Positions 2 through 44,035 of a DNA stretch of 64,000 nucleotides are shown here, piece after piece. Numbering within the stretch: the stretch's first letter is position 1; every line of letters begins with the position of its first letter. Origin of the DNA: Escherichia phage ECML-183-2; the sequence record OL631481.1; one strand, 5' to 3'. The notes below the pieces were generated by a model. It did no database searches, had not been told where the DNA came from, and saw nothing but the letters and a program-made list of their open reading frames with translations. The position numbers were made by a program, and so were the translations under genes.

Positions 2-100
2 TTAGAAGGTTTCTACCGGACTAATGGTGTTGAGGAACATGATATTTTAAACTTAAAAGGTTTTTGTGAAATAGTGGAGGATTTAAATGGCAGCAATTAA
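2..100 (+). CDS. 3' end of an unidentified upstream gene (partial at window edge)
   Basis: Frame open from window start to TAA at 98-100, overlapping nrdB start; too short to identify. Confidence 0.25.
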   Translation, partial: LEGFYRTNGVEEHDILNLKGFCEIVEDLNGSN

Positions 101-1175
101 TTTACATAACGAAGTTTACAAAACAGGAAAATATCCAGTATTTTTAGGGGAACAATTAGGGATTTTTGATTCTGTTAACGTAACTTATCCAGAAATGCAT
201 AAACTCTACAAACTTCAAAAAGCACAAGATTGGGATGAGAATGAAGTTAATCTGGATCAGACACGTAAAGATTTCGTAGCTTGTTCTAAAAACAACTATG
301 ATGTTATGATTAAAAACTTATCGTTCCAATGGGAAAATGATTCTCTTGCAAAATCAATCATCACTTTGTTCTCTCCATTCTTGAGTAACAATGAAGCCTG
401 TGCTATGATGATGAAGCAGAGTGAAATGGAAGTTCTCCATGCGTTAACGTATTCTGAAATAATCCGTCAATGTACTCCAGATCCAATTGAAGTCATCAAT
501 CAGATTATGATTAATGATAAAATTTTCAATCGTATGGGTATCATTGCTGATATCATGGGTCAGTTGGAAGAAGCTGGTCATAAGTATGCTCTAGGATTGA
601 TTGAAGCTAACGATGAACTTCGCTTGCTGATTCTTAAAGGGATGGTAGCCCTGATTGGATTAGAAGGTATTCAGTTTATATCTTCCTTCTCTGCTACTTT
701 TGCTATGGCAGAACAACAACTGTTTGTTGGGGCTTGTAAACTGATCCAGAAAATTATGCTAGATGAAATCTTGCATGTTAAGATGGACTATGCTGTAATT
801 GATGCATTGATGCATGACCCAATTTGGCGTAAAATTTACGAAGATAATATTGAAGAGTTGACTTTGATCCTCGACACTGTTGTTGAACAAGAGGAACAGT
901 GGTGTGACTACCTGTTTAGTGAAGGTCGTTTTATTGTAGGTCTTAACGCCGAATTGTCTAAACAGTGGGTTTATTTCAATGCTGCTCCTATTTATCGTCG
1001 ATTGAAAATGAAAGCCAAGTTTAAAGCACCTAAACATAGTCCTTTAGCTTGGATGGAAAAATGGTTGAATCCTGATTTGATTCAGTCAGCAGCCCAAGAG
1101 ATTCAGTTAACTAATTACAAATTGAATTCAGCTAACAAAGATCTCTCTGATGATGAGGAGCTTGACTTCGAATGA
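87..1175 (+). CDS. nrdB: ribonucleotide reductase class Ia small (beta) subunit
   Basis: 362 aa; diiron/tyrosyl-radical motifs align with E. coli NrdB (EVLHALTYSEIIRQ, DEILH, QEEQWCDYLF); GGAGG RBS. Confidence 0.9.
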   Translation: MAAINLHNEVYKTGKYPVFLGEQLGIFDSVNVTYPEMHKLYKLQKAQDWDENEVNLDQTRKDFVACSKNNYDVMIKNLSFQWENDSLAKSIITLFSPFLSNNEACAMMMKQSEMEVLHALTYSEIIRQCTPDPIEVINQIMINDKIFNRMGIIADIMGQLEEAGHKYALGLIEANDELRLLILKGMVALIGLEGIQFISSFSATFAMAEQQLFVGACKLIQKIMLDEILHVKMDYAVIDALMHDPIWRKIYEDNIEELTLILDTVVEQEEQWCDYLFSEGRFIVGLNAELSKQWVYFNAAPIYRRLKMKAKFKAPKHSPLAWMEKWLNPDLIQSAAQEIQLTNYKLNSANKDLSDDEELDFE

Positions 1176-1533: not shown

Positions 1534-1687
1534 AAAAGAGTATGTTCGCATTCCACGAGAATTAACAGATCACATTGCAGAAGCAATAGCTTTCGAAGCT
1601 AGATGTTGTGGAGGCATTGCTTACGATATTTATGAAGCAATTATTAAAGCTGCTCAAGAAGAGGAGGAGATGAAAAATGGGTATTGA
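1523..1687 (+). CDS. hypothetical small protein (54 aa)
   Basis: Not in ORF track; GGAGG RBS 6 nt upstream of ATG; fills gap before next gene. Confidence 0.3.
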   Translation: MESEKEYVRIPRELTDHIAEAIAFEARCCGGIAYDIYEAIIKAAQEEEEMKNGY

Positions 1688-2003
1688 TATCGAATGGCGT
1701 ATGTTACAGGGTGCACCTTTTAATAAGTGGGAAGAGGCTGTAGGAGAAGATCCTAGAATTGAAGAAGAATTTGATGGAGATTTTAACTGGTTCTTACAAG
1801 AAGGTCTTGACTTAAGTCGAATCTCTCCTTTCTACGATGCTGATGAGTCTTATTGCATATATGGTATTTATTTAGAAGGCGGAGAAGGAAGCGTAGCTGT
1901 AGATCTTGAGCAAGTAAATGAGAATGCAAAAGAAGCCTATGCAGAGCTACTTGAAAAATATAACATTAAAACGGAAACTATTATTTCTCAACATGTCTGG
2001 TAA
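1677..2003 (+). CDS. hypothetical protein (108 aa)
   Basis: ORF track; RBS GAGGAGGAG upstream; acidic protein. Confidence 0.5.
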   Translation: MGIDIEWRMLQGAPFNKWEEAVGEDPRIEEEFDGDFNWFLQEGLDLSRISPFYDADESYCIYGIYLEGGEGSVAVDLEQVNENAKEAYAELLEKYNIKTETIISQHVW

Positions 2004-2012
2004 GGAGAGAAA

Positions 2013-2579
2013 ATGAAAGTAGAAAAAACAAAAATTGAAGGTGCGGTAATTATCAAACCAGACGTTTATAAAGATGACCGTGGTTTCTTTTTAGAAACAT
2101 ATAATGAACAAAAATACGAAGATATCATTGGTAGACAAACTTTCGTTCAAGATAACATGTCTAAATCAAACTTCGGTGTTTTGCGAGGAATGCACTTTCA
2201 AACAAATAATCCGCAAGGTAAGCTTGTTCGTTGTGTAAGTGGTGAAGTATTGGATTTCGCTGTAGACTTACGTAAAGATAGTCCTACTTACGGTGCTTGG
2301 GACGGTGTTGTTCTTCGTGCACGACACCATACGCAGTTTTGGCTTCCACCTGGTTTGGCACATGGTTTTATAGTTTTGAGTATGGATGCTATCTTTGAAT
2401 ACAAATGCACAACTCCATACGACCCTTCTAGTGAAGAAAGTTTACGTTGGGATGATCCTGATATAGGGATCGATTGGGGCTTCGATATGATTTTTGATGA
2501 AGGTTTTAAACCTATCCTATCAACAAAAGATGCAATGGCTAAATCTTTTCAACAGTTACGTAGCGAGGGTGTATGCTAA
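2013..2579 (+). CDS. rmlC: dTDP-4-dehydrorhamnose 3,5-epimerase
   Basis: 188 aa; RmlC cupin signatures (DDRGFF.E, VLRGMHFQ, KLVRCV.GEV.DFAVDLRKDSPTYG, PPGLAHGF). Confidence 0.9.
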   Translation: MKVEKTKIEGAVIIKPDVYKDDRGFFLETYNEQKYEDIIGRQTFVQDNMSKSNFGVLRGMHFQTNNPQGKLVRCVSGEVLDFAVDLRKDSPTYGAWDGVVLRARHHTQFWLPPGLAHGFIVLSMDAIFEYKCTTPYDPSSEESLRWDDPDIGIDWGFDMIFDEGFKPILSTKDAMAKSFQQLRSEGVC

Positions 2580-3415
2580 CATATCTGGTATTGGGTGGTA
2601 ATGGACAACTGGGACAAGCTTTACGTAAAGTTGCCCCTGCAAATGTATCTTTAATTTATCCTAAAGAACGTGTAGATATTACAAATTTTGAAGCTGTGCG
2701 AAACGCTATTGTTGAAGATTATGTAGATGGTGTTATTAATTGCGCCGCTTATACGGCTGTAGATAAAGCCGAACAAGATTTTGCTACTGCTTTGGCTGTT
2801 AATGCTTATGGCCCTGCAAATATTGCGGCAGTGTGCAGCAAACTTAAAATTGATTTTGTGCATATTTCCACAGACTATATTTTTAATTATTCTCATCCTA
2901 TTTTTGAAGACACTGCACCTAACCCAATAAACAATTATGGGTATACGAAAGAACTTGGTGAAAAAATGGTGCGAGGAGTTAACCCAAATGCATATATTAT
3001 TCGAACAGCCTCGGTATATAGCGAATTTGGAAATAACTTTCTAAAAACCATGTTGTCTCGCTATAATGATGGACAACGTGATTTTATTATTGTTGCTGAT
3101 CAGTTCTCTTGTCCAACATATGCTCCAGATTTAGCAGAAGCTATTTTTGAAGTATTAAAAACAGGTTGGTCAAGGTCTGTTAAGACTTACCATTTTGCAG
3201 GAAGCCATCTTATTTCTTGGGCGGAGTTTGCGGAAAAGATCTTGACACAGATGCCAGAACCTGTTAAGATATCGGCGGTATCAGCTTCAACCTATAATGC
3301 TCCAGCAGCACGTCCGGTGAAGTCACAACTAATAACCAGTCACTATCTTACAAAATCAGATTTAAATAAAGGTATTGAACAGTCTTTAGCAGTATTACTT
3401 AATAAGGAGAGGTAA
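2573..3415 (+). CDS. rmlD: dTDP-4-dehydrorhamnose reductase
   Basis: 280 aa; N-terminal Rossmann GGNGQLG, STDYIF, catalytic YGYTK; overlaps rmlC stop. Confidence 0.9.
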   Translation: MLTYLVLGGNGQLGQALRKVAPANVSLIYPKERVDITNFEAVRNAIVEDYVDGVINCAAYTAVDKAEQDFATALAVNAYGPANIAAVCSKLKIDFVHISTDYIFNYSHPIFEDTAPNPINNYGYTKELGEKMVRGVNPNAYIIRTASVYSEFGNNFLKTMLSRYNDGQRDFIIVADQFSCPTYAPDLAEAIFEVLKTGWSRSVKTYHFAGSHLISWAEFAEKILTQMPEPVKISAVSASTYNAPAARPVKSQLITSHYLTKSDLNKGIEQSLAVLLNKER

Positions 3416-3675
3416 TGGAATTTGTAATTTTTGGTAAACCTAACTGTCAATTTTGCGAAATGTCAAAACAACTATTAACCATGCGCAATAAACAGTTTGA
3501 ATATTTAAGTCTTGATCAAGACTATGATTTAGAATCAATGACTAAAACAGTTGTTGATCTTACCGGAGTTCCTCCACGCACATTTCCACAAATTCTGTCT
3601 GAAGTGAACGGGGAGGTAACATACGTAGGCGGTTTTACCGAACTGCGTGATCTCATGGCTCAAATTGCGGAGTAA
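3415..3675 (+). CDS. nrdC: glutaredoxin/thioredoxin (T4 NrdC-like)
   Basis: 86 aa; CQFC active site, C-terminal GGFTELRDL resembles T4 NrdC GGFDQLREY. Confidence 0.75.
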   Translation: MEFVIFGKPNCQFCEMSKQLLTMRNKQFEYLSLDQDYDLESMTKTVVDLTGVPPRTFPQILSEVNGEVTYVGGFTELRDLMAQIAE

Positions 3676-5169: not shown

Positions 5170-5670
5170 ATGGGTGTAGCAACAATAGCTATCGGAAGAA
5201 GCGGTATAGATGAGTGCTATCAAACGGGACTCGTAAAACCTAACGAATTTCGTCAAATTTGTGTAAACCATATTGAAAAAGAGATTGCTCTTACTTTAGA
5301 GAATATGACCCTCCGAGATAAACTGGAAATGTTTAAATGTTGGTGTCTAGGAGAAGATTGGCTTTTAAACCATTTTCAAGAACTTTCTGATAGTAAAGAA
5401 AGCTTGTTTGATTGTATAATAGGAATAGCTGGCTCCGATCCTAGCCTTCTGCACATAACAGAAGAAGAGGCGAAGTTACTGTTCTTAAGTAATTTGTTTA
5501 ATAAGAAAGCACTGCTTGTTCGTGATTGCAGTGATCTTCTTAATAACCCGCTCGCAACGTCTGATCAAATTTTTGTTGACAAAGAGACACTACGTGCGAT
5601 AGAATACATCTGCAAATATGTGAATGGCGGGAAAGCGGTTCTTAAAACATTAACAGAGGAGGAAGAATAG
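5170..5670 (+). CDS. hypothetical protein (166 aa)
   Basis: ORF track (start at ATG after TTG); AAGGAGG RBS. Confidence 0.5.
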   Translation: MGVATIAIGRSGIDECYQTGLVKPNEFRQICVNHIEKEIALTLENMTLRDKLEMFKCWCLGEDWLLNHFQELSDSKESLFDCIIGIAGSDPSLLHITEEEAKLLFLSNLFNKKALLVRDCSDLLNNPLATSDQIFVDKETLRAIEYICKYVNGGKAVLKTLTEEEE

Positions 5671-6362
5671 TGACGACAATTATTGCAACCAAAAATAAGA
5701 TTTTGAGTGACGGTAAGGTAACTTTTGGTGGACGTGTAGATTCTATTAATTTCAAAAAGGTCCGAAAAATTGGAGATTACCTTGTAGGTGGTGCTGGTCG
5801 TCTGACCTCCGTGCTTTCTTTCTTTCAATGGTTTGAACAAAATCTACAGTGCGAAGCAGCACGTGATGCTGTCCCTGGTTTGATGATTCACTCTGATCCA
5901 GATAAAGAAGATGAAGAGTTTATTGCACTTGTTGTTCATCCAGACGGACGTATTTTCCTGCACGAAGGTAACAACCCAACACGTGCATATCCGATTGATG
6001 AAGAATATTATGCAGTAGGAAGTGGGTCAGACTTTGCTTTAGCTGCTCTTGATGCAGGGGCAACACCAGAACAGGCTATGGAAGTAGCTAAAAAGCGAGA
6101 TGCTTTTTCTGGTGGTGAAACATTTATTGAAGAACAAGACGAGATTATTGAATTAACAGATGATGATTTAGAAAACTTCTCCAAAGAAGAATTGATCAAT
6201 CTTTTGAAATTCGGTAATCCCTACGGTGAAGAAGAACCTCGTAACGTGGCAGGTAACGAGGCGGATACTGAAGAAAAATCTGTTGCAGAAAACAACTTGA
6301 CTTCTAAATCTGAAAATATTAATCTCGTAAATGTGGCGGATTTCGAAGGAACCGCTATTTAA
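5670..6362 (+). CDS. HslV/proteasome-beta-like Ntn peptidase with acidic C-terminal extension
   Basis: GTG start then TTI (N-terminal Thr after fMet), GGAGRLTS and GSGSDFALAA motifs resembling HslV. Confidence 0.55.
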   Translation: MTTIIATKNKILSDGKVTFGGRVDSINFKKVRKIGDYLVGGAGRLTSVLSFFQWFEQNLQCEAARDAVPGLMIHSDPDKEDEEFIALVVHPDGRIFLHEGNNPTRAYPIDEEYYAVGSGSDFALAALDAGATPEQAMEVAKKRDAFSGGETFIEEQDEIIELTDDDLENFSKEELINLLKFGNPYGEEEPRNVAGNEADTEEKSVAENNLTSKSENINLVNVADFEGTAI

Positions 6363-6407: not shown

Positions 6408-6842
6408 ATGTTACAAGTTCCTGCTAAGTTTGTTGAAGGCGCTATCCACTCTTACCGTCAAACATGTAAGAGGGCAAGAAACTGTTTAGATGGTCTGGTG
6501 GCAAAAACCTATACTGTTGAAAAGAAGAAACGTTGGTTTGGCAAAGATGTTTACGAAGTTAATATTTTTGGTGAACATAAACTAAACCACGATACTCCTG
6601 AAAACATGTTAGAAATATTTCTAAGAGATGACAAAATATCTCCTATGGATTACCAACTTTTAAAATTTTATGATTCTTCTTTGGCTATTGATAAGTTTGT
6701 TGAAGATATTCTGTCTAGAAAAACAGATAAAAACACTTATCCTCTAGAGGCTGATCAAATAGGATTATTAAACGAGATTTCATCCTTTAAAGAGTTGGAT
6801 AATATTACAAAAGAGGAGATTTTAGATGGCATTAGATTATGA
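6408..6842 (+). CDS. hypothetical protein (144 aa)
   Basis: ORF track; RBS AGGAG. Confidence 0.5.
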   Translation: MLQVPAKFVEGAIHSYRQTCKRARNCLDGLVAKTYTVEKKKRWFGKDVYEVNIFGEHKLNHDTPENMLEIFLRDDKISPMDYQLLKFYDSSLAIDKFVEDILSRKTDKNTYPLEADQIGLLNEISSFKELDNITKEEILDGIRL

Positions 6843-7335
6843 TCGCCCAACGAGCGATTATTATCCGACACCGCAAAAAGCAATCAATAGTTTGTTTAGT
6901 GTTATAGATTTCAAAAATCTAAAGGAAGAAGGTTGGGTTTTTGCAGAACCTTGCAGAGGTGAAGCTGAAGCGATTTATCGCCATTTTCCTGAAGGTTCAG
7001 AATATTGCGAACTTGAAGAAGGTAAAGATTATTTTAGTCACGAATGGGAAAATCGTCCCGACATTATAATCACAAATCCTCCATTTAAGTTAGCAATGGA
7101 GTTCTTGGAAAAGAGCTTAAAAGAGGCGGATGTTTGTATTTATCTTCTTCGGTTGGGCTTCTTGGAGTCAAAGAAACGACGAGAGTTCCATCAAAAGAAT
7201 CCACCAACAAACCTTATAGTCCTTTCAGAACGGCCTTCGTTTGTTGCAGGTGGAACAGATAAGACAGCATACGCTTGGTATGTATACGACCCAAAGAATC
7301 GTTTGGGCCTCTCTCAACCATTTTATTTTGTTTAA
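6826..7335 (+). CDS. putative DNA N6-adenine methyltransferase (NPPF motif)
   Basis: 169 aa; DYYPTP and IIITNPPF catalytic-motif-like segments; family not verified. Confidence 0.45.
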   Translation: MALDYDRPTSDYYPTPQKAINSLFSVIDFKNLKEEGWVFAEPCRGEAEAIYRHFPEGSEYCELEEGKDYFSHEWENRPDIIITNPPFKLAMEFLEKSLKEADVCIYLLRLGFLESKKRREFHQKNPPTNLIVLSERPSFVAGGTDKTAYAWYVYDPKNRLGLSQPFYFV

Positions 7336-14429: not shown

Positions 14430-15046
14430 TGTCAAATTCAAAACCAGTAGTTGCTTATCAAGTAGATCGTAATGATGGTGAAGGTAGTGTTGTAGTTTTT
14501 GATACACATGGTCTTGCAGCAAGACGCAAAGGTGCTTGTCTACTGGACATTGGTGGTGAAGATGAATACTGCACTGTACGTAGAGTAAAAGAATTTGATC
14601 AATATGCTGAAAAAGGTTTTGTACCCGTGAAAGCACTATTAGAAGCTGGATGGTGGATACCTAGTGCACATGATTATGATATTTTGGAAGATACAGATGA
14701 ATTCAACAGTGAAGATTTTGTTTTTTCTCTGGATGAAAAATGCGTTTGGAAGGACTGGGATGAAATGGAACGCCATGCTTATTTTATAAACGAAGCATTA
14801 GATCGTAAAACTTGGTTTGAGAATACAGTTAAAGCAGCGTATCCTCAATTTACTTTTACACAGTTTTGGGGTGGCCCACATCATATTACTCATACAGCAT
14901 ATTTCGAGTTCCCAGGCTCACGTTATAAAGGTACTGTTTATTGGGATTGGGACGAGGACAAAGAACCTTCTGCTCAAGACTTCCGTTGCTATGTTTGTCA
15001 AGGTGATCAAGAAGCCCTTGACAAATACCTACAAAGTCTGGTATAG
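14429..15046 (+). CDS. hypothetical protein (205 aa)
   Basis: ORF track; RBS AAGGAG. Confidence 0.5.
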   Translation: MSNSKPVVAYQVDRNDGEGSVVVFDTHGLAARRKGACLLDIGGEDEYCTVRRVKEFDQYAEKGFVPVKALLEAGWWIPSAHDYDILEDTDEFNSEDFVFSLDEKCVWKDWDEMERHAYFINEALDRKTWFENTVKAAYPQFTFTQFWGGPHHITHTAYFEFPGSRYKGTVYWDWDEDKEPSAQDFRCYVCQGDQEALDKYLQSLV

Positions 15047-15063
15047 TGCCAACATCTGAACAA

Positions 15064-15092
15064 AGCCTCCTGTTTCAGGGGGCTTTTCTTTT
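15064..15092 (+). terminator. probable rho-independent terminator
   Basis: AGCCTCC-loop-GGGGGCT imperfect hairpin followed by TTTCTTTT. Confidence 0.5.
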
Positions 15093-15104
15093 ATAGGAGG
15101 GAAT

Positions 15105-15584
15105 ATGTTTCAAGTAAATGTCAATGTGCATAATAGTTACTCTGATTGTGAAACGTGTGGCTATAATTCATCTAATGTTGTTCGTATTAGTGGCGATTTA
15201 GGAGAAGCTTCTTTTGGAGAAGAAGCAAGTTGCTTTAGTGGTATGGATGCAGAATGGAATGATATTGCACATTGGTTGGTGAGCAAACTAAAAGAAAAAG
15301 AGAAACCATTTCCTACTCTGCTTGATCGTTCTCTTGTGGAAGACGCAGGTAAAGCATATGCAGACTATGCGTATGCAGACGGTAAATATTTGGAAGATGA
15401 TAAGGCTAACCATTTGCTTTATGTTTACTATGAAGCTGAATCTGCCTACGATAATTATTACAGCATGTCTAACATCCTACGTCTGTTTGCAGAGTTTGAT
15501 ATTTATTTCGAAGTAGAATTTTCAGAAGATGATGTTTATGAATATGATTCTTATGATCCATTTGAGGAGGAAGAGGGTGAATGA
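15105..15584 (+). CDS. hypothetical acidic protein (159 aa)
   Basis: ORF track; RBS AGGAGGG; highly acidic C-terminus. Confidence 0.5.
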   Translation: MFQVNVNVHNSYSDCETCGYNSSNVVRISGDLGEASFGEEASCFSGMDAEWNDIAHWLVSKLKEKEKPFPTLLDRSLVEDAGKAYADYAYADGKYLEDDKANHLLYVYYEAESAYDNYYSMSNILRLFAEFDIYFEVEFSEDDVYEYDSYDPFEEEEGE

Positions 15585-16168
15585 TAGAACGAAAACCCTT
15601 ACCAGATAGAGACTACTTGTTATCAAGGTTTAGTGTGGAGAATGGTCGTCTTGTTTGGAAACCTAAACCTTCTACAACAAAAGAGAACAAAAGATGGAAT
15701 AGCAGATACGCAGGGAAGATTGCAGGGACTATTGATAAAGCTGGTTACTCTCATGTCAAAATAGACGGTATTGTATACTTGGAGCACAGAGTTTGTTTTA
15801 AAATGTACCATAATTACTGTCCAGATGTTATAGATCATGATGACGGCAATAAGCTTAATAATGCGGAAAGTAATTTATTGGATAGTAACTATTTATTAAA
15901 TAATAACAATAGACATGTGGATGGGTTAGAAGGTATTTATGAAAAGGATGGTGTTTTTCTTTGGGTTATAAACTACAACCAAGAAACTTTCTCTGTTTCA
16001 GGTTTCAAAACTAAAGAGGAAGCTACTGTAGCTAGAGCTTTAGCAAAACAAGAAATTTTGAAAGGATCTTATATCAAAAAAGAAAAGAAGCGTATAGATA
16101 ACACTTCAGGATTAAGTTGTGTGTTTGTGGCAACAAGAGAGAACATTCTTTTTCAAGTTTGTGTTTGA
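15581..16168 (+). CDS. HNH homing-endonuclease-like protein with AP2-type DNA-binding domain (possibly frameshifted)
   Basis: HNH_3-like YLEHRV...IDHDDGNKLNN; AP2-like VSGFKTKEEATVARALA; C-terminus appears to continue in +1 frame after T5 run at 16149-16153. Confidence 0.65.
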   Translation: MIERKPLPDRDYLLSRFSVENGRLVWKPKPSTTKENKRWNSRYAGKIAGTIDKAGYSHVKIDGIVYLEHRVCFKMYHNYCPDVIDHDDGNKLNNAESNLLDSNYLLNNNNRHVDGLEGIYEKDGVFLWVINYNQETFSVSGFKTKEEATVARALAKQEILKGSYIKKEKKRIDNTSGLSCVFVATRENILFQVCV

Positions 16169-16308
16169 CAAGACCACGTATTGCAAATATGGTTTCAACG
16201 ATCCAGAGAGATGTGCTATAGCTCTGGAGAAGCTAAGGTTGAAGGTGATGAAAGAAAAATATAAACCTGCAAATAAAAGCATTTGCGAAAAACATAAGGA
16301 GGAGATTT

Positions 16309-17124
16309 ATGCCGCGTAGAGTCATATTCATAACTGGCGCAGGACTATCTGTGGATAGCGGTATCCCAGCTTTTAGAACAGATACTTCTTCAGGGGAGGC
16401 GTTATGGTCTTCTTATAATCTTTCTGAAGTCTGTGACATTTTCAACTTCCGTGACGGTTATCAGCAAGAACAAGGTATTCTGGATGCTATGGGCGGTTTA
16501 GATGCGGAAGGATATAACCTCTACCGTAAAACTCACGACTTTTACAATAAACGTCGCGCGGAATTAGAGAAAGTTGACCCGAATCCGGCACATCTTCAGA
16601 TTGGGGAATGGTTCAAAAAACATGGTGCAGAAAAGATTATTAACATCACTACTAACGTTGATGACCTCCTTGAACGAGCAGGAGTAGATAGGGAAGAAGT
16701 GCTACATGTGCATGGTTTTCTTCCTGAAATTACTTTTCAAAGAAAAGCTGGACAACCTACAATTGTAAAAGATGTTGGTTATCAAGCCATAGATGTAGAT
16801 GACTACCATTATGTAAAACCTAATGTAATCTTCTTTGGGGAAGCTGCTCCACTTTACACAGATATGTATCATATTTTTGATACACTGACGGCTCAAGATA
16901 TGGTTATCGTTGTAGGCTGCTCTAACCAAGTAATCAACTTCAACTGGGAACTCTTCCCTGCCCTGAATATTGGGGTTAAGATGGTTGTAGTTAACCCAGG
17001 TTTGAATTTTGTAGAACAAACTCTCTACGAAGAACGTGGAGTGCTTGTCTACCGAGAGAAAGCAGGAACAGTCTTCAGTGATGAAGGCTTTATCAAAATG
17101 GTTGAAGACCATTTAAACAAATAA
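16309..17124 (+). CDS. Sir2-family (sirtuin-like) NAD+-dependent protein, no zinc-ribbon
   Basis: GAGLSVDSGIPAFR, TTNVDDLLERAG, HG, VIFFGE, VVGCS motifs; the CxxC..CxxC Zn module is absent. Confidence 0.8.
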   Translation: MPRRVIFITGAGLSVDSGIPAFRTDTSSGEALWSSYNLSEVCDIFNFRDGYQQEQGILDAMGGLDAEGYNLYRKTHDFYNKRRAELEKVDPNPAHLQIGEWFKKHGAEKIINITTNVDDLLERAGVDREEVLHVHGFLPEITFQRKAGQPTIVKDVGYQAIDVDDYHYVKPNVIFFGEAAPLYTDMYHIFDTLTAQDMVIVVGCSNQVINFNWELFPALNIGVKMVVVNPGLNFVEQTLYEERGVLVYREKAGTVFSDEGFIKMVEDHLNK

Positions 17125-17133
17125 ACCACTCAA

Positions 17134-17153
17134 GGGGCTTCGGCCCCTTTCTT
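17134..17153 (+). terminator. rho-independent terminator
   Basis: GGGGC-TTCG-GCCCC hairpin followed by TTTCTTATT. Confidence 0.7.
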
Positions 17154-17167
17154 ATTAGGAGAATAAA

Positions 17168-17440
17168 ATGACTGAAGAAATCCGTGATTACTACCTTGCA
17201 CATTACGTTTACTACTTTGCCAATGCTACACAAAAAGGGGAAGGTAATCTTTACTTGGCAACAGGACATGGAACAGGCGTTAGGAAATCCAATATTGATA
17301 ATGCCTTGGCTCAAGTGGCTGCGGGGCTAGAAGATAAACTTCAAACACCTGTAGTTGTAGTGATGCAAAATATAAGTTACCTAGCAAGTTGTACTGAAAC
17401 CGAATTTAACGCGTCTGAGACGCAATCTAACGAAGAATAA
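17168..17440 (+). CDS. hypothetical protein (90 aa)
   Basis: ORF track; RBS AGGAG. Confidence 0.5.
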   Translation: MTEEIRDYYLAHYVYYFANATQKGEGNLYLATGHGTGVRKSNIDNALAQVAAGLEDKLQTPVVVVMQNISYLASCTETEFNASETQSNEE

Positions 17441-37613: not shown

Positions 37614-37913
37614 TTAGATCGCTGTTTCCAGTAGTTCGGCTAACGTCTTACCGCCTGATAGTTGGTCTAACGTTTGCTCTTCTGGCAAGAAATTAGCTGA
37701 TATTAATCCGACTTGATTTCCTTTGTGCCAATTAGCTTGACGGATGATTCCATCCTTTAAAGATTTTACCGCCATTGTGCAACCGTCGCCAAATGATTCA
37801 TTTTTATGATCCATTACTTCATAAGCGCCCAGCTTGCTGCTGTTAGGCACCATTAACGCGAATACATCACCAACAACCAGCTTTTCTACGGTAACAATAG
37901 CGATAGTTTCCAT
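37614..37913 (-). CDS. hypothetical protein (99 aa)
   Basis: ORF track; GC hairpin 37590-37605 downstream. Confidence 0.5.
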   Translation of the reverse strand: METIAIVTVEKLVVGDVFALMVPNSSKLGAYEVMDHKNESFGDGCTMAVKSLKDGIIRQANWHKGNQVGLISANFLPEEQTLDQLSGGKTLAELLETAI

Positions 37914-37930
37914 TTTACTTTCCTCATTAT

Positions 37931-37986
37931 CGGCGGCACCATTGCCGCCCTACGCATTAAATATAAGTTATCTAAGAGATTAGATC
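37931..37986 (-). promoter_or_regulatory. PeSL-like cassette (early promoter + 5' stem-loop)
   Basis: rc: TTGATC-17-TATATT then GGCGGCA-ATGG-TGCCGCC hairpin. Confidence 0.5.
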
Positions 37987-37991
37987 AAGGA

Positions 37992-38183
37992 TTATTTTGT
38001 AAAGATTACAGCTTCATCAAAATTTTCAACATAGTAAGCAAGCTCTTCATTTGCTGCAACCATTCCTAAAAGTTGGCTATAAGATAAACCTTTGATCCCT
38101 TCCTCGTTGTTTAATGCTTCGATGATTTCATCAACGGGCGCAAAAAACATGTTATTCGATTCCAGGTAGGAGATGGTTTTCAT
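37992..38183 (-). CDS. hypothetical protein (63 aa)
   Basis: ORF track; own cassette upstream. Confidence 0.5.
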   Translation of the reverse strand: MKTISYLESNNMFFAPVDEIIEALNNEEGIKGLSYSQLLGMVAANEELAYYVENFDEAVIFTK

Positions 38184-38204
38184 AATGTTTACCTTTTTCG
38201 GGGA

Positions 38205-38260
38205 GCGGCACCATTGCCGCCCTACGTGGTAAATATTAGCACACTGGCGATCTGTGTCAA
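38205..38260 (-). promoter_or_regulatory. PeSL-like cassette
   Basis: rc: TTGACA-16-TAATAT then GCGGCA-ATGG-TGCCGC hairpin. Confidence 0.55.
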
Positions 38261-38266
38261 TACTTT

Positions 38267-38653
38267 TTATTCAATATAAATCAAATTATCTTCACCAATG
38301 TAAGCCGACACGTTCGGCATAAACTTAGCTGCATTGGTTAGGCGGTTCGCCGTGTTAGTGGTGTATATTTCAGGGCGATCCCAAAAGCCTACGCCGTGAC
38401 CGTTACGGGTAAAATGTAAATCATTCCCGATCTGGTTGGCTGTTGCGCCGTCGCTCATTGCCTCAGAGATAGCGGCAAGATTAGCATTAATAAAGGCTGT
38501 TACATCCTGGGCGATCCGTTGATGGGCTTGATCTGAAAAATCATAATCAGTCATGTCATCTATAAAATTACCTTCATGATCCCTTGCGGATTCAGCAAAA
38601 ATAAAGGCTTCTTTATAACCGTTGATGATTTCAATAATGATTTCTGTTTTCAT
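38267..38653 (-). CDS. hypothetical protein (128 aa)
   Basis: ORF track; conserved-looking GHGVGFWDR segment, family unknown. Confidence 0.5.
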   Translation of the reverse strand: MKTEIIIEIINGYKEAFIFAESARDHEGNFIDDMTDYDFSDQAHQRIAQDVTAFINANLAAISEAMSDGATANQIGNDLHFTRNGHGVGFWDRPEIYTTNTANRLTNAAKFMPNVSAYIGEDNLIYIE

Positions 38654-38874
38654 GCTGTACGCTCGACAATAATAATAGTTTGCGGGATCTCGTTTTCTAC
38701 TACTAACAAGGCTTTTTTCTGTGTGATAGATATTTTAACACGTTGTAAAGTAGCGGTGAAATCTTTCATTTCATTATGCGCGGACTTCGTGCAATGCCAG
38801 ATCTCAGGCTTACCAACTTGTAAGCCGCGTAAAAATTCCGTTTTGCCTGTTTTGTTCGTGATCATTTGTTTCAC
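38650..38874 (-). CDS. hypothetical protein (74 aa)
   Basis: ORF track. Confidence 0.45.
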   Translation of the reverse strand: MKQMITNKTGKTEFLRGLQVGKPEIWHCTKSAHNEMKDFTATLQRVKISITQKKALLVVENEIPQTIIIVERTA

Positions 38875-38875
38875 C

Positions 38876-38980
38876 TTAACCGATACCGTGGGAAGATAGG
38901 ATCATGTTAGCCATAGTTGCAACCACTCCAACCGATAACGCCAGGCCCACTATTACAACCGTGAAAATTTTCTCTAACAT
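38876..38980 (-). CDS. small membrane protein (34 aa)
   Basis: Track ORF trimmed to ATG with GAGGG RBS; upstream part is hairpin read-through. Confidence 0.45.
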   Translation of the reverse strand: MLEKIFTVVIVGLALSVGVVATMANMILSSHGIG

Positions 38981-38996
38981 GATTCTACCCTCATTA

Positions 38997-39059
38997 ATGG
39001 GCGTTGCACCATTGCCCCGCCCTACGTAATACACTTTACCAGATAACAAATTATTGTCA
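38997..39059 (-). promoter_or_regulatory. PeSL-like cassette
   Basis: rc: TTGACA-16-TAAAGT then GC hairpin. Confidence 0.5.
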
Positions 39060-39124
39060 AGGTTTATTTTACTTCCCAAACGGAAAATTCACTGCGTGGC
39101 GGGAAGTATTCCCCGCCTTATTAA

Positions 39125-39295
39125 TTACTCTTCATCGTCGCCGTTATAGTATTCAATGCCGTTTTCATCGGTTACGGTGATGTTAACGCCACCGATAGCA
39201 ACACGATCACGGGCAAACGTCATAGCTTCATTTAAATCTTCAGACCAAAAAATATTGTGACCTTTGCGCGATACATAAAACATAGTCGGGATCAT
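39125..39295 (-). CDS. hypothetical protein (56 aa)
   Basis: Track ORF trimmed to internal ATG; GC hairpin 39097-39116 downstream. Confidence 0.45.
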   Translation of the reverse strand: MIPTMFYVSRKGHNIFWSEDLNEAMTFARDRVAIGGVNITVTDENGIEYYNGDDEE

Positions 39296-39318
39296 GATTT
39301 GTTTCTCTTCTGTTGTGA

Positions 39319-39379
39319 GCGGTGGACCATTCCGCCGCCCTATGTGGTAAACTTTACTACGTTGTTTGCCTGTTGTCAA
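39319..39379 (-). promoter_or_regulatory. PeSL-like cassette
   Basis: rc: TTGACA-17-TAAAGT then GGCGG-loop-CCGCC hairpin. Confidence 0.5.
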
Positions 39380-39380
39380 A

Positions 39381-39665
39381 TTATTTTTTAATGTTTTGCC
39401 CTACAAAATTGATCACTTCCTTAAGCTGTCTCTCTGTCATGATCGTACCTGGTAACTCTTCTTTAATTTCTTCCGGTAAATAGATATTACCGCGCCAGGT
39501 TAACAAACAACCGTTTTGATCTTCGCAGATAGAATAAGAAAACATCCACTCGCAATCATTTTCAAGCTCCCAAAAACACAAAAAGTCTTCTTTCCCTAAG
39601 TTTTCAACGGTTAAACATAATCCGCGACGTGCTGCATAATTAGTCAGGCTTTTTGTGATTTTCAT
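39381..39665 (-). CDS. hypothetical protein (94 aa)
   Basis: Track ORF trimmed to internal ATG. Confidence 0.5.
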   Translation of the reverse strand: MKITKSLTNYAARRGLCLTVENLGKEDFLCFWELENDCEWMFSYSICEDQNGCLLTWRGNIYLPEEIKEELPGTIMTERQLKEVINFVGQNIKK

Positions 39666-39686
39666 GATTTTTCTCTCTTCTTGTGA

Positions 39687-39742
39687 GCGGCACCATTGCC
39701 GCCCTACAAGATACATATTATCAGACTAGGCGGACTTGTCAA
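39687..39742 (-). promoter_or_regulatory. PeSL-like cassette
   Basis: rc: TTGACA-16-TAATAT then GCGGCA-ATGG-TGCCGC hairpin. Confidence 0.55.
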
Positions 39743-39743
39743 A

Positions 39744-39854
39744 CTATTTTTTCTTTTTCTTTGCTTCCAACCGTCTAAGGTTACGGCTTGACTTATTTCG
39801 CAAGGCGCTTAGATCGTCGTACCCTTTCCATGCTTGCATATCTTTCGGATTCAT
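39744..39854 (-). CDS. small basic protein (36 aa)
   Basis: Not in ORF track; AAGGGG RBS; hand-derived coordinates. Confidence 0.3.
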   Translation of the reverse strand: MNPKDMQAWKGYDDLSALRNKSSRNLRRLEAKKKKK

Positions 39855-39863
39855 GTTATCCCC

Positions 39864-40025
39864 TTACTTGTTAGCCGGATCATATACCAGGACCGCGCCG
39901 CTTGCTTTCACGCTTTCCGCTTCATAGTTGCGCAGATCGTTTTCTGTAAGGTTGAGCGCGATCACTTCCTCGATCTCAACGTCAGCGGCAAGGGCGATCT
40001 CTTTGATAATGTCTGTTGTTTTCAT
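39864..40025 (-). CDS. small acidic protein (53 aa)
   Basis: Not in ORF track; AAGGTG RBS; hand-derived coordinates. Confidence 0.35.
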   Translation of the reverse strand: MKTTDIIKEIALAADVEIEEVIALNLTENDLRNYEAESVKASGAVLVYDPANK

Positions 40026-40035
40026 AGTACGCACC

Positions 40036-40155
40036 TTATAAGATGATTGATAAGATAGTGATAACGAAAGCGATTATACTGATGGCAAATGTCATCTTTT
40101 TACCTTCGGATACTGCCGGATTTTCTACCGTGTATTCTACTGTGTACTTGCTCAT
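40036..40155 (-). CDS. small membrane protein (39 aa)
   Basis: Not in ORF track; C-terminal hydrophobic helix; directly after cassette. Confidence 0.35.
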   Translation of the reverse strand: MSKYTVEYTVENPAVSEGKKMTFAISIIAFVITILSIIL

Positions 40156-40178
40156 CGTGTAATCCTCTCGTTTGCTTT

Positions 40179-40235
40179 GGGAACTATTCCCGCCGCCTTA
40201 TGAATTAAATATACACTATCTCAAAATGATTGCAA
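40179..40235 (-). promoter_or_regulatory. PeSL-like cassette
   Basis: rc: TTGCAA-16-TATATT then GGGAA-TAG-TTCCC hairpin. Confidence 0.5.
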
Positions 40236-40252
40236 GCCTTTTTCTAAATTAT

Positions 40253-40537
40253 TTATGCAGTAAACAAACCATCATTTACAACGGCGGCGATGATCTCCCG
40301 TGCCATTGATTCAGGGAAAGGGGCGCTATAGTCCTGGCTTGTCTCATCGGTATCAGTGATCCAATGATAAGCTAACGAGTAAAAGCCTTTACTAACTGTT
40401 TTCAGTGAGATGATGATCACTCGGTCAAGCTTATTGGTGAATGTTGCCGTTAATGTGTTACCCTCCTGCGTCATGTTGGACAAGTAAGCGGGATCATTAA
40501 TCAGGGAAAACATTAGCACGGTGTTAGCTTTACTCAT
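40253..40537 (-). CDS. hypothetical protein (94 aa)
   Basis: Track ORF trimmed to internal ATG; the track ATG lies inside the hairpin loop. Confidence 0.5.
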   Translation of the reverse strand: MSKANTVLMFSLINDPAYLSNMTQEGNTLTATFTNKLDRVIIISLKTVSKGFYSLAYHWITDTDETSQDYSAPFPESMAREIIAAVVNDGLFTA

Positions 40538-40557
40538 GATTGCATCCTCAAAGGGGC

Positions 40558-40612
40558 GCGGCACCATTGCCGCCCTACACGATAACTATAACACAATGTA
40601 AAACAGGATCAA
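40558..40612 (-). promoter_or_regulatory. PeSL-like cassette
   Basis: rc: TTGATC-16-TATAGT then GCGGCA-ATGG-TGCCGC hairpin. Confidence 0.5.
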
Positions 40613-40815
40613 CCTTTATTTTTCCACGGTGTCAGCTTGTTAATCATTGGTGATAAATAGCGTTTACCAACGTAAAACAGTACGCCAACTGATGCAACGG
40701 CGGCGATCTCATGTAAGGAGGAAGGTCGCGCGGTGTCATAATAGGTACCAATAATAGCAATAGCGGCTACTGCGGCAATGTCTGTAATAATTTTTTCTTG
40801 TTTTGCGGTGATCAT
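40609..40815 (-). CDS. small membrane protein (68 aa)
   Basis: Track ORF trimmed to internal ATG; two hydrophobic segments. Confidence 0.5.
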   Translation of the reverse strand: MITAKQEKIITDIAAVAAIAIIGTYYDTARPSSLHEIAAVASVGVLFYVGKRYLSPMINKLTPWKNKG

Positions 40816-40838
40816 AATATTTACCTTTTTGTATGGTG

Positions 40839-40895
40839 GGGGAACTATTCCCCGCCTGATGTAATACAGTTTAACAGGTCCGGTTATGGTGTCAA
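40839..40895 (-). promoter_or_regulatory. PeSL-like cassette
   Basis: rc: TTGACA-15-TAAACT then GGGGAA-TAG-TTCCCC hairpin. Confidence 0.5.
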
Positions 40896-40901
40896 CCACT
40901 T

Positions 40902-41087
40902 TTAAAGATATTTTATATTGATAACGTTTTCAGGTTTAACCTTGTTGTGATGTGCATCAACATAGATCAAACCATCGTCAGAAAAGCCCAGGATCACGCC
41001 CTGCGCAATAAAACCGTATTCGTCACGGTAACGCACGGCTATTTTTAACGTTGCGTTGTAGGCTGTTTTAAGCTCGTTTAAAGTCAT
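40902..41087 (-). CDS. hypothetical protein (61 aa)
   Basis: ORF track. Confidence 0.45.
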   Translation of the reverse strand: MTLNELKTAYNATLKIAVRYRDEYGFIAQGVILGFSDDGLIYVDAHHNKVKPENVINIKYL

Positions 41088-41108
41088 TTTTGTTTATCCT
41101 CTACATGT

Positions 41109-41136
41109 AAAAAGAAAGGGCGCTTGGTGCGCCCTT
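41109..41136 (-). terminator. rho-independent terminator inside the array
   Basis: rc reads AAGGGCGC-ACCAA-GCGCCCTT + TCTTTTT. Confidence 0.6.
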
Positions 41137-41142
41137 GTTATG

Positions 41143-41289
41143 TTAATCCTCTAAATCCATCCAATTATATTTGTCACTCTTCCCGCGCTTTGTTTTATTA
41201 CGCTTGTCGCCTTTTCGGATCACTTCCTCGTTCCAGGCCTTGCGGATCTTGGAAGATTGAATTTTTTCTGCGCGATTAGATGTATTCAT
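41143..41289 (-). CDS. small basic protein (48 aa)
   Basis: Not in ORF track; AAGAGGA RBS; Lys/Arg-rich. Confidence 0.4.
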   Translation of the reverse strand: MNTSNRAEKIQSSKIRKAWNEEVIRKGDKRNKTKRGKSDKYNWMDLED

Positions 41290-41309
41290 TTTGTTTCCTC
41301 TTTATATGA

Positions 41310-41362
41310 GCGGCACCATTGCCGCTATATTATTAATTTAAACTGTTTTGTAAAATTGTCAA
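41310..41362 (-). promoter_or_regulatory. PeSL-like cassette
   Basis: rc: TTGACA-16-TAAATT then GCGGCA-ATGG-TGCCGC hairpin. Confidence 0.5.
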
Positions 41363-41368
41363 GGTTTA

Positions 41369-41722
41369 TCATTGATAAGAGCAAGCAAGGATCACGCCTG
41401 CAATATAAAGCCAATAATTTTCCCTTTCTCGTTGGATTTTATCATCGCTGCTATTCTCTTTAATGTATCCCCAGGATGTTAACAGGCGATCAATTTCCCA
41501 ATATTCGAAAGCGATATTGATATCTGATGGCAAGCCTTGTAACCATGATGCAAGTGCTTTAACAATACTATAATTAAAACGTGATTGGTTATCAGGGTAC
41601 CAGTACTCGGAATTAAAACGGTGCATCAATTCCGCGATCTTCTCTTTTTCGGTTGTAATACCGTAATCATTAAAATCGATAGCGGCAAGGATGTACTCTT
41701 TAATTGCATTTTGTGCTTTCAT
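41369..41722 (-). CDS. hypothetical protein (117 aa)
   Basis: ORF track. Confidence 0.5.
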   Translation of the reverse strand: MKAQNAIKEYILAAIDFNDYGITTEKEKIAELMHRFNSEYWYPDNQSRFNYSIVKALASWLQGLPSDINIAFEYWEIDRLLTSWGYIKENSSDDKIQRERENYWLYIAGVILACSYQ

Positions 41723-41741
41723 GGTCTTTCTCTCTTTTTGA

Positions 41742-41798
41742 GCGGGAACTATTCCCGCCCTACGTGTAACAGTTTACTAAAAATTAAATCCGTGTCAA
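41742..41798 (-). promoter_or_regulatory. PeSL-like cassette
   Basis: rc: TTGACA-16-TAAACT then GCGGGAA-TAG-TTCCCGC hairpin. Confidence 0.55.
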
Positions 41799-41801
41799 GC
41801 T

Positions 41802-42023
41802 TTATTTTGTTACTACCATTTGGTACCCTGTTTCAATGTTAGTAAATACTGTTATCCCGTCCTGGCGTTCACTCATTAGCATACAAGGCGCTAACATCCT
41901 TTCTACTGCCTTGCACTCATTGTAAACGGCGGTTATGTCTCCTGCGGCCTTGTCTTCTGTGGTGAATGTATCGTTTACGTAAACCTGACCAGCGACAACG
42001 GCGACAATAGCGAAAGTGATCAT
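41802..42023 (-). CDS. hypothetical protein (73 aa), shares MITFA 5' end with next-upstream gene
   Basis: ORF track; first ~20 nt of CDS plus RBS duplicated at 42245-42270. Confidence 0.5.
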   Translation of the reverse strand: MITFAIVAVVAGQVYVNDTFTTEDKAAGDITAVYNECKAVERMLAPCMLMSERQDGITVFTNIETGYQMVVTK

Positions 42024-42054
42024 GATGTTTCCTTGTTAGTAGTGGTTTCTCTTC

Positions 42055-42095
42055 TCTATAGCGCCCATTGTAAGGCGCTATAACGAAAAGTCAAC
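42055..42095 (-). promoter_or_regulatory. variant cassette (promoter overlapping TATAGCGCC hairpin)
   Basis: rc: TTGACT-16-TACAAT with 9-bp-stem hairpin overlapping. Confidence 0.4.
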
Positions 42096-42097
42096 GA

Positions 42098-42265
42098 TTA
42101 TTTTTTAAGGCTTAAAGTACCTAACTTGTCAGCATGACGCAGACCAGGGAAGATCCATTTGCCTGATTCATCTTTCACCGGGGCTTTAAGCGTAGCGCCC
42201 AGGTTGGCGGCGTTAACTTTACGTGCAACGTTGCGAGCGGCTTCACGGGTAGCGAAAGTGATCAT
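42098..42265 (-). CDS. small protein (55 aa) starting MITFA
   Basis: Not in ORF track; hand-derived; same 5' end as 41802..42023. Confidence 0.4.
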   Translation of the reverse strand: MITFATREAARNVARKVNAANLGATLKAPVKDESGKWIFPGLRHADKLGTLSLKK

Positions 42266-42289
42266 GATATTTTCCTCTTCTCTTTGTTA

Positions 42290-42351
42290 GGCGGTGGACC
42301 ATTCCGCCGCCTTGATGTAATACAGTTTACTTTATTTTTGCAGTATTGCAA
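42290..42351 (-). promoter_or_regulatory. PeSL-like cassette
   Basis: rc: TTGCAA-16-TAAACT then GGCGG-loop-CCGCC hairpin. Confidence 0.5.
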
Positions 42352-42357
42352 GCGGTT

Positions 42358-42570
42358 TTATGAAATAATCGTCAAAGTAAAATTGTAATCACCTGATTGA
42401 TACAATACTTTATCACCGAACGTTCCAACACGTTTAACATTGCAATATATACCCATAACACTTTTTACATCTTTGATATTCTTCACGCCTGTAATATCTT
42501 TATTAAAATGATCGTGATCAGAAAATAAAACTTGTTTTGCATTTTTCAACAAGGTGCGGATATTAGCCAT
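42358..42570 (-). CDS. hypothetical protein (70 aa)
   Basis: ORF track. Confidence 0.5.
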   Translation of the reverse strand: MANIRTLLKNAKQVLFSDHDHFNKDITGVKNIKDVKSVMGIYCNVKRVGTFGDKVLYQSGDYNFTLTIIS

Positions 42571-42595
42571 CGTGATAATCTCTCTTCTGTTGTGA

Positions 42596-42651
42596 GCGGC
42601 ACTATTGCCGCCCTACGTAATACAGTTTACTCTTTTTCTTTCCCGTGTCAA
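42596..42651 (-). promoter_or_regulatory. PeSL-like cassette
   Basis: rc: TTGACA-16-TAAACT then GCGGCA-ATAG-TGCCGC hairpin. Confidence 0.55.
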
Positions 42652-42660
42652 CAATCTTTT

Positions 42661-42888
42661 TCAGATTAATTCATCCAGGCATAACAGGCGATCAACGTTG
42701 AGATCGGTTAGGCTGATGGTTGGCACCTGGTAGGATTCGATGTACTCGACGCTCGCATATTCTCCAAAATTAGCAATAGCCCACTTATTCAAGATCTCAC
42801 ATACATCATTAATCTTTTTGTTTGTTACAACTGCTACAACCTGGGAACTGCCAACGGTGCCGGATACACGAACAATATTGATAGCCAT
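42661..42888 (-). CDS. hypothetical protein (75 aa)
   Basis: ORF track. Confidence 0.5.
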   Translation of the reverse strand: MAINIVRVSGTVGSSQVVAVVTNKKINDVCEILNKWAIANFGEYASVEYIESYQVPTISLTDLNVDRLLCLDELI

Positions 42889-42911
42889 AATCTTTAATCT
42901 CTCTGTTGTTG

Positions 42912-42970
42912 GCGGGAAACCATTTCCCGCCCTATGTGATACATCTTACACTAATTTTAAACGTTGTCAA
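42912..42970 (-). promoter_or_regulatory. PeSL-like cassette
   Basis: rc: TTGACA-16-TAAGAT then GCGGGAAA-TGG-TTTCCCGC hairpin. Confidence 0.55.
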
Positions 42971-42980
42971 CTGTTTTTTA

Positions 42981-43220
42981 TTACATTCCAACCATCGCGG
43001 CACGGATCGCAGTAGTGCTATATTTGAAACCGTCTGGAGTTTTATCTTGTCCAGTTTGTTCCAGAAAAAGCATCATATCCCGCGCCGCATCATTACGATT
43101 AGCATTAGCGTTAATAAAATCCAAGGCCAACCGATACAATGATTCATCGTTATTAATCCAAAGGCTTACATTCCAATGAGTTTTGTTTTTGTGACCGTTG
43201 TACATTTTAGATTTAGCCAT
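42981..43220 (-). CDS. hypothetical protein (79 aa)
   Basis: ORF track. Confidence 0.5.
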   Translation of the reverse strand: MAKSKMYNGHKNKTHWNVSLWINNDESLYRLALDFINANANRNDAARDMMLFLEQTGQDKTPDGFKYSTTAIRAAMVGM

Positions 43221-43244
43221 GATTTTTCTCTCTTTTTCAGTGAG

Positions 43245-43303
43245 GCGGGAAGTGTTCCCGCTCTCTATGTAATACAGTTTACTCTTTTTATTCGTGCTGT
43301 CAA
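43245..43303 (-). promoter_or_regulatory. PeSL-like cassette
   Basis: rc: TTGACA-16-TAAACT then GCGGGAA-CACT-TCCCGC hairpin. Confidence 0.55.
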
Positions 43304-43309
43304 TGCTTT

Positions 43310-43675: not shown

Positions 43676-43701
43676 GGTGTCACTCTCTCTTTTTGGTTAG
43701 T

Positions 43702-43753
43702 GGGAAGTATTCCCGATAAAAGTTATTATGCTTATACTATCACTCATTGTCAA
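43702..43753 (-). promoter_or_regulatory. PeSL-like cassette
   Basis: rc: TTGACA-17-CATAAT then GGGAA-TAC-TTCCC hairpin. Confidence 0.5.
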
Positions 43754-43772
43754 TAGTATAAGACTAAAACTT

Positions 43773-43952: not shown

Positions 43953-43974
43953 GATGTTAACCTTTTATTGTTGG

Positions 43975-44029: not shown

Positions 44030-44035
44030 CCGTTT

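Follow-up and report, generated by a model that had tools for sequence, protein, structure and literature searches.

The 64,000-nucleotide stretch of Escherichia phage ECML-183-2 analyzed here (sequence record OL631481.1; called the window throughout) carries rmlC and rmlD, the genes for the last two steps of deoxythymidine diphosphate (dTDP)-L-rhamnose synthesis, and neither rmlA nor rmlB. With good confidence, the observations taken as a whole are best explained by a deletion allele of a four-gene rml cluster, in which the two remaining enzymes RmlC and RmlD would be fed by the host and would supply the donor for a set of phage glycosyltransferases. We are aware of the fact that the two-gene arrangement, while real, is already known and annotated in many public genomes. 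The rml genes were noted as odd (“peculiar”) in a DNA-metabolism region in 2020 (PMC7552041), and the lack of two of these genes in phage ESCO37, unlike its four-gene relatives, was already stated (PMC10269720). The window adds no new kind of element. What is added here is the deletion mechanism, the single origin and spread of the allele, the recurrent loss of rmlB and rmlA versus the retention of rmlC and rmlD, the redundancy with the host and the link to glycosyltransferases. The two genes are:

2013-2579, plus strand: rmlC, dTDP-4-dehydrorhamnose 3,5-epimerase, 188 amino acids (TIGR01221, PF00908)
2573-3415, plus strand: rmlD, dTDP-4-dehydrorhamnose reductase, 280 amino acids (TIGR01214, PF04321)

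An earlier note on this DNA had placed rmlC and rmlD at 2013-3415. Both open reading frames (ORFs) were found at exactly these coordinates and both scored above the NCBIfam cut-offs. The RmlC equivalog model TIGR01221 was matched with 224.3 bits (cut-off 155.75) over residues 2-181 of the 188, and PF00908 with 223.7 bits (E 1.4e-66). The best solved relative of phage RmlC was Salmonella RmlC (1DZR, E 4.4e-56), and in the alignment with 1DZR the Salmonella catalytic residues His63, Lys73, Tyr133 and Asp170 corresponded to phage His61, Lys70, Tyr130 and Asp173 (numbering counted by hand). RmlD passed its equivalog model TIGR01214 by a narrow margin (238.1 bits, cut-off 224.05), reached just 120 bits versus 308 for the enterobacterial RmlD model NF007440, and matched PF04321 with an E of 2.6e-73. 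Its best solved relatives were 3SC6 from Bacillus anthracis and 1VL0 from Clostridium (E about 1e-44), with which the motifs G8-x-x-G11-x-x-G14, Thr100 (STDY) and Tyr122-x-x-x-Lys126 align. The ratio of nonsynonymous to synonymous polymorphism (pN/pS) was 0.02-0.07 for rmlC, pairs of two-gene phages included. For rmlD, five of the six pairs fell at 0.13-0.30 and the other gave 0.74, on 7 differences only. Both genes are intact, under purifying selection and selectively maintained.

RmlC and RmlD are predicted from these similarities to turn dTDP-4-keto-6-deoxy-D-glucose into dTDP-L-rhamnose; reductases homologous to RmlD yield either L-rhamnose or 6-deoxy-L-talose. With the bacterial pathway (rfbB-rfbD-rfbA-rfbC of E. 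coli K-12; Salmonella RmlC 1DZR and RmlD 1KBZ) the phage pair shares the enzyme families, the catalytic residues and the predicted chemistry. It differs in that the phage genes lie outside an O-antigen locus and lack the first two steps, and in that phage RmlD is closer to 3SC6 and 1VL0 than to the Salmonella enzyme. Identity to the K-12 proteins was a mere 48% for RmlC and 33% for RmlD, which ruled out a recent capture of the two genes from the host.

Dozens of Phapecoctavirus genomes matched the first 6 kb of the window with 98-99% identity, and in many of them about 1.9 kb of additional DNA interrupted the match. By these identities the window belongs to Phapecoctavirus (phAPEC8-like phages of the Stephanstirmvirinae). 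At the same site phAPEC8 carries rmlB-rmlA-rmlC-rmlD, with RmlA and RmlB both above their equivalog cut-offs, and phage ZCKP1 carries rmlC-rmlD only, as in the window. The cluster of phAPEC8, ESCO13 and other Phapecoctavirus genomes and the window share the locus, between a 108-amino-acid ORF and a glutaredoxin gene, and 98-99.7% nucleotide identity in rmlC-rmlD; the window differs by the lack of the 1.87 kb holding rmlB and rmlA, with its junction in a shared GGAGA ribosome-binding site. Two features mark this place:

1677-2003, plus strand: 108-amino-acid ORF directly left of the deletion junction, bearing the deletion-linked haplotype
2004-2012, plus strand: deletion junction and ribosome-binding site GGAGAGAAA, from alignment to both phAPEC8 junctions

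In the window the junction reads TAAGGAGA followed directly by GAAAATG. In phAPEC8 the same TAAGGAGA is followed by ACTGATG before rmlB, and GCGGAGA is followed by GAAAATG before rmlC. The 5-nucleotide repeat GGAGA, the Shine-Dalgarno sequence of both rmlB and rmlC, stands at both edges; therefore, the missing 1.87 kb are bounded by a direct repeat, as is characteristic of deletion through microhomology, and rmlC has a ribosome-binding site at the proper position. Recombination between the GGAGA sites ahead of rmlB and rmlC excised rmlB and rmlA cleanly and put rmlC behind the ribosome-binding site of rmlB.

Four genes at this locus were found in phAPEC8, ESCO13, DE16, phiWec188, Justusliebigvirus PHB05 and the distant Klebsiella phage 05F01. 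A comparison of NrdB makes 05F01 the outgroup, with 60% identity versus 84-89% among the others. Because this outgroup carries four genes, the four-gene state is ancestral and the two-gene state a derived deletion allele. The opposite polarity, with rmlBA inserted as the derived state, was ruled out by the four genes of the outgroups PHB05, phiWec188 and 05F01. A two-gene state designed as a minimal pathway does not agree with a deletion allele derived from a four-gene operon that most relatives have kept.

The flanks of the junction showed how the allele spread. Nine single-nucleotide polymorphisms at 1817-1944, in the 130-bp left flank of the junction, set the window, ZCKP1 and iGC_PHA_EC001 apart from phAPEC8 and ESCO13, which have four genes. 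Over the first kb right of the junction the window showed 0-1 differences per 250 nucleotides to the four-gene phages ESCO13 and DE16, versus 5-10 sites per 250 nucleotides to ZCKP1 and iGC_PHA_EC001, and its RmlC protein was 100% identical to that of ESCO13. A recombination breakpoint was located at the rml junction (window 1677-2450), with the crossover within about 70 nucleotides of the junction. No record was identical to the window, whose rmlC-rmlD allele is of the ESCO13 and not of the ZCKP1/iGC type. With a left flank as in two-gene phages and a right flank as in four-gene phages, the deletion allele therefore has one origin, marked by the left flank, and has been recombined onto different rmlC-rmlD backgrounds. 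It arose once, and homologous recombination has since carried it from one phage background to another. Recombination of the four-gene phage ESCO5 with the two-gene phage ESCO37 was seen directly in a laboratory co-infection (PMC10269720). That the lineage of the window suffered this deletion a second time, independently, was ruled out by the nine shared left-flank polymorphisms. The ORF at 1677-2003 occurs in DE16 as a very divergent allele with about 130 differences. Positions 14535-17200 of the window, in the region of a Sir2-like gene, form another mosaic segment with about 78-79% identity to iGC_PHA_EC001 versus 98-99% in the flanks.

The frequency of the junction was determined with a 240-nucleotide probe spanning it, which matched 63 phage records. 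The junction was uninterrupted in 21 of these (17 distinct phages after removal of GenBank/RefSeq duplicates), and all others were split exactly at GGAGA. The same junction and gene order were found in ZCKP1, ESCO37, Mt1B1_P17, iGC_PHA_EC001, SF1-1, anhysbys, nepoznato, WPEC1/2/4/6 and others; two thirds of the Phapecoctavirus records carry rmlB-rmlA-rmlC-rmlD at this site. The rmlC-rmlD pair was present at an identity of at least 95% in 64 records and rmlB-rmlA at at least 90% in 43, and at the protein level RmlC was found in 167 phage records versus 139 for RmlA. Further losses differed in form. A separate 0.8-kb deletion has cost DIJ07P2 the rmlB 3' end together with most of rmlA, only rmlC-rmlD is present in Klebsiella phage KP13-26, in most of the Klebsiella members RmlC occurs without RmlA, and rmlA of AV125 is one base short, which may be a sequencing error. 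In every genome examined rmlC and rmlD were intact except for rmlD of P3322, which is split by a 1-nucleotide loss in an A7 run that may also be a sequencing error. Overall, rmlB and rmlA were lost or damaged repeatedly and independently, and what the cluster has kept as its core is rmlC and rmlD. A scan of IMG/VR with RmlC yielded just two loci, a four-gene one and a stranger with 40% identity.

A tblastn search of the 64-kb window with the phAPEC8 proteins detected no rmlA or rmlB, only the similarity between RmlB and RmlD as short-chain dehydrogenases/reductases (E 3e-4). The relative iGC_PHA_EC001 shares the junction, and no RmlA or RmlB was found anywhere in its complete genome. Judging by such same-junction relatives, rmlA and rmlB are probably absent from the genome of this phage beyond the window as well. 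This agrees with the claim of the earlier note that only the last two steps are encoded. The note had further held that rmlA and rmlB elsewhere in the genome, together with a glycosyltransferase cluster for ordinary polysaccharide synthesis, would speak against its reading. The genome check it had asked for gave a different picture, because the relative iGC_PHA_EC001 carries no rmlA or rmlB and its four glycosyltransferase genes do not form an ordinary polysaccharide locus.

In E. coli, RffH and RffG make dTDP-4-keto-6-deoxy-D-glucose for the enterobacterial common antigen, and wecE, for the next enzyme in that pathway, is annotated as dTDP-4-dehydro-6-deoxy-D-glucose transaminase. Of 5426 complete E. 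coli genomes, 5309 (98%) contained the K-12 rffG-rffH genes and 2348 (about 43%) detectable K-12 rfbC, the latter count being a lower bound from a nucleotide search. Because of these frequencies, the RmlC substrate is expected in essentially every host and the last two steps often are not. The host would give RmlC its substrate via RffH/RffG and, in some strains, via RfbA/RfbB. Phage rmlB and rmlA would be redundant with the host; rmlC and rmlD would not, many E. coli strains being without them. Such redundancy fits the retention of rmlC-rmlD and the loss of rmlB-rmlA. The proposal that the phage draws on the host intermediate is supported by the near-universal presence of rffG-rffH, from which we infer the flux.

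A probable consumer of dTDP-rhamnose was found in iGC_PHA_EC001, where four tandem glycosyltransferase genes (record 87378-90522) lie beside primase/helicase and DNA polymerase genes, at a place that maps about 13 kb past the right end of the window. They encode two paralogous enzymes of the GT-B fold (GT-a and GT-b, 314 and 315 amino acids) and two small GT-A enzymes (227 and 187 amino acids) with DDD and DTD motifs, one of these two being GT-c. A hydropathy scan of the four proteins showed no clear membrane segment, with top 19-residue values of 0.76-1.65 and GT-b borderline at 1.65. The module was conserved in all Stephanstirmvirinae with rml genes. GT-c was present at an identity of at least 95% in 64 records, a number equal to that of rmlC-rmlD, and also in phiWec-like, Justusliebigvirus and Klebsiella members; among Escherichia phages 106 counts for GT-c faced 105 for RmlC. 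In a distant 135-kb phage contig (2667-3737 of the piece examined) a gene for an RmlB-like nucleoside diphosphate (NDP)-sugar 4,6-dehydratase (TIGR01181, 171 bits, below the cut-off) stands directly upstream of a GT-c homologue, both again upstream of primase/helicase and polymerase genes in the same order. These links are associations, and the idea of a sugar donor in the earlier note gains support from the presence of the four-gene module in every relative. dTDP-L-rhamnose would serve as donor for the four soluble enzymes.

A sequence search of the PDB with GT-c gave no match. The matches recorded for GT-c were GlfT2, a polypeptide GalNAc-transferase, SpsA, Listeria RmlT and chlorovirus A64R; those for GT-a were sucrose-phosphate synthase, PglA, BshA and PimA, with the T4 alpha- and beta-glucosyltransferases further down. 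As acceptor we infer a protein or a glycan, for example virion proteins, to be more likely than DNA.

Glycosylation of the virion or of other proteins, which would alter stability, adsorption or immune recognition, is our preferred choice of acceptor, although a tentative one. Outside its own subfamily GT-c matched nearly only glycosyltransferases of Che8-group and Myrna-group mycobacteriophages, and tblastn against about 360 mycobacteriophages gave E values of 1e-8 to 1e-4. Some Che8- and Myrna-group mycobacteriophages have glycosylated capsids (PMC11256854). The likeness to Che8 lies in tandem glycosyltransferases outside the structural module and in GT-c, whose GT-A core is distantly similar to glycosyltransferases of cluster F and C phages; Che8 gp108 matched GT-c with E 4e-4 and 23% identity. 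Several points weigh against virion proteins as the acceptor. The similarity is weak, at 23-28% identity and confined to the generic GT-A core, and Che8 gp109 and gp110 showed no similarity. The genes lie outside the structural module, and no glycosylated Stephanstirmvirinae virion was reported in the literature searched. To our knowledge, no rml genes are involved in glycosylation of the Che8 type. Mimivirus and chloroviruses make uridine diphosphate (UDP)-L-rhamnose for virion glycans. These giant-virus pathways resemble the phage system in virus-encoded synthesis of activated rhamnose combined with glycosyltransferases, and differ in the UDP- instead of dTDP-linked sugar, the eukaryotic hosts and an unrelated gene context.

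Transfer of rhamnose onto a modified base of the phage DNA, similar to T4 hydroxymethylcytosine and protective against host nucleases, was proposed for the rml genes by Olsen et al. (PMC7552041). We consider this published guess unlikely, though only weakly disfavored. Like the T4 system, with its deoxycytidine monophosphate (dCMP) hydroxymethylase and alpha-/beta-glucosyltransferases, the module lies among early DNA-metabolism genes and includes enzymes of the GT-B fold (GT-a and GT-b). Unlike in T4, the sugar nucleotide is dTDP-linked and phage-made, and no hydroxymethylase was found: the annotation of iGC_PHA_EC001, in which many genes are unannotated, lists no enzyme for hydroxymethylated pyrimidines (ThyA-family hydroxymethylase, or methyltransferase plus TET/JBP). 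The thymidylate synthase of this relative is ThyX-like (TIGR02170, 31 bits), and the matches of the glycosyltransferases to TAGT and T-even enzymes were short and weak. Related phages were reported to be highly restriction-sensitive (PMC8594841).

According to a third explanation the genes manipulate host metabolism without any phage acceptor, either through feedback inhibition of RmlA/RffH, sparing deoxythymidine triphosphate (dTTP), or by starving the common antigen or O-antigen. Their position within a deoxynucleotide cluster, co-oriented with nrdB and glutaredoxin and with no terminator between, speaks in its favor, as do the established feedback inhibition of RmlA by dTDP-rhamnose and the use of the same intermediate by WecE for the common antigen. 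Yet two thirds of the Phapecoctavirus records, all Justusliebigvirus examined, phiWec188 and 05F01 encode RmlA and RmlB, which consume dTTP, and the fact that the genes strictly co-occur with the four-glycosyltransferase module suggests that their product is used. The sparing of dTTP suggested by the earlier note is disfavored because most relatives encode their own RmlA, a thymidylyltransferase, and we regard the whole explanation as improbable.

Equally doubtful is a transfer of the sugar onto host lipopolysaccharide, common antigen or capsule that blocks superinfection or the trapping of progeny on debris: rhamnose is common in O-antigens, these phages recognize several surface glycans, and GT-a resembles glycosyltransferases for lipid-linked oligosaccharides and lipopolysaccharide (PglA, WlaC, PimA, WaaG), but the annotation of iGC_PHA_EC001 lists no flippase, no polymerase, no initiating transferase and no Gtr-type membrane protein around the module, the glycosyltransferases lack a clear membrane segment, and no such effect was reported for this strictly lytic phage.

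Returning to the virion, a wider proposal is that Stephanstirmvirinae build a rhamnose glycan on their own virion proteins, or less likely on DNA, from dTDP-L-rhamnose that is phage-made or host-completed and with the four-glycosyltransferase module. This is a speculative possibility, though one that deserves serious consideration. If true, it would be the first glycosylated coliphage virion, and the DNA version would be a new rhamnosyl hypermodification of DNA; the natural rmlB/rmlA-deleted variants would depend on the host for the modification. On the experimental function of phage rml genes, the literature searched yielded only the speculation on DNA glycosylation and the remark on ESCO37, and rml genes are unmentioned in the Durham phage DNA-modification paper, a DNA-glycan preprint and the phiWec and Sichuanvirus papers. 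Phages like phAPEC8 and phi92 are widely proposed for therapy and biocontrol owing to their broad host range, and a virion acceptor would matter for how stable the phages are, how they adsorb and how antibodies recognize them. The pattern described here turns a vague rml annotation into a testable system, for which natural two- and four-gene variants suit comparison.

The gene neighborhood of the pair in the window is framed by:

87-1175, plus strand: nrdB, small subunit of class Ia ribonucleotide reductase (PF00268, E 6.3e-33), opening the same-strand run that holds rmlC and rmlD
3415-3675, plus strand: glutaredoxin, 86 amino acids, an NrdC-like electron donor (PF00462, 38.1 bits, cut-off 22.9)

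The earlier note had described the pair as embedded between nrdB and nrdC. nrdB does lie upstream and a glutaredoxin gene downstream; however, four small ORFs (1172-2003) intervene between nrdB and rmlC, and the name nrdC holds in function only. The ATG of rmlD overlaps the end of rmlC by 7 nucleotides, and the rmlD stop codon and the glutaredoxin ATG overlap by 1 nucleotide (TAATG). rmlC, rmlD and the downstream glutaredoxin gene are translationally coupled. No terminator-like site was found on the plus strand between 1 and 6368, and a promoter scan performed no better than chance.

Further genes of the same run, at 5670-6362, 6826-7335 and neighboring positions, encode by the annotation of relatives an HslV-like peptidase, PhoH and a T4-type lysozyme, together with small NPPF-motif DNA methyltransferases, a DprA-like protein and a NinI-like phosphatase. 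iGC_PHA_EC001 carries an HNH endonuclease gene between nrdA and nrdB (16450-17106 of the stretch examined) that is absent from phAPEC8 and ZCKP1. Among the minus-strand genes at 37900-46200 of the window, an intergenic module was observed in at least 13 copies ahead of many small ORFs. Each copy consists of a GC-rich hairpin (GGCGGCACCATTGCCGCC or GCGGGAACTATTCCCGC) adjoining a conserved stretch, which on the minus strand reads TTGACA, a spacer and TAATATTTACCACGTAG. By their layout these modules look like repeated cassettes of an early promoter and a stem-loop.

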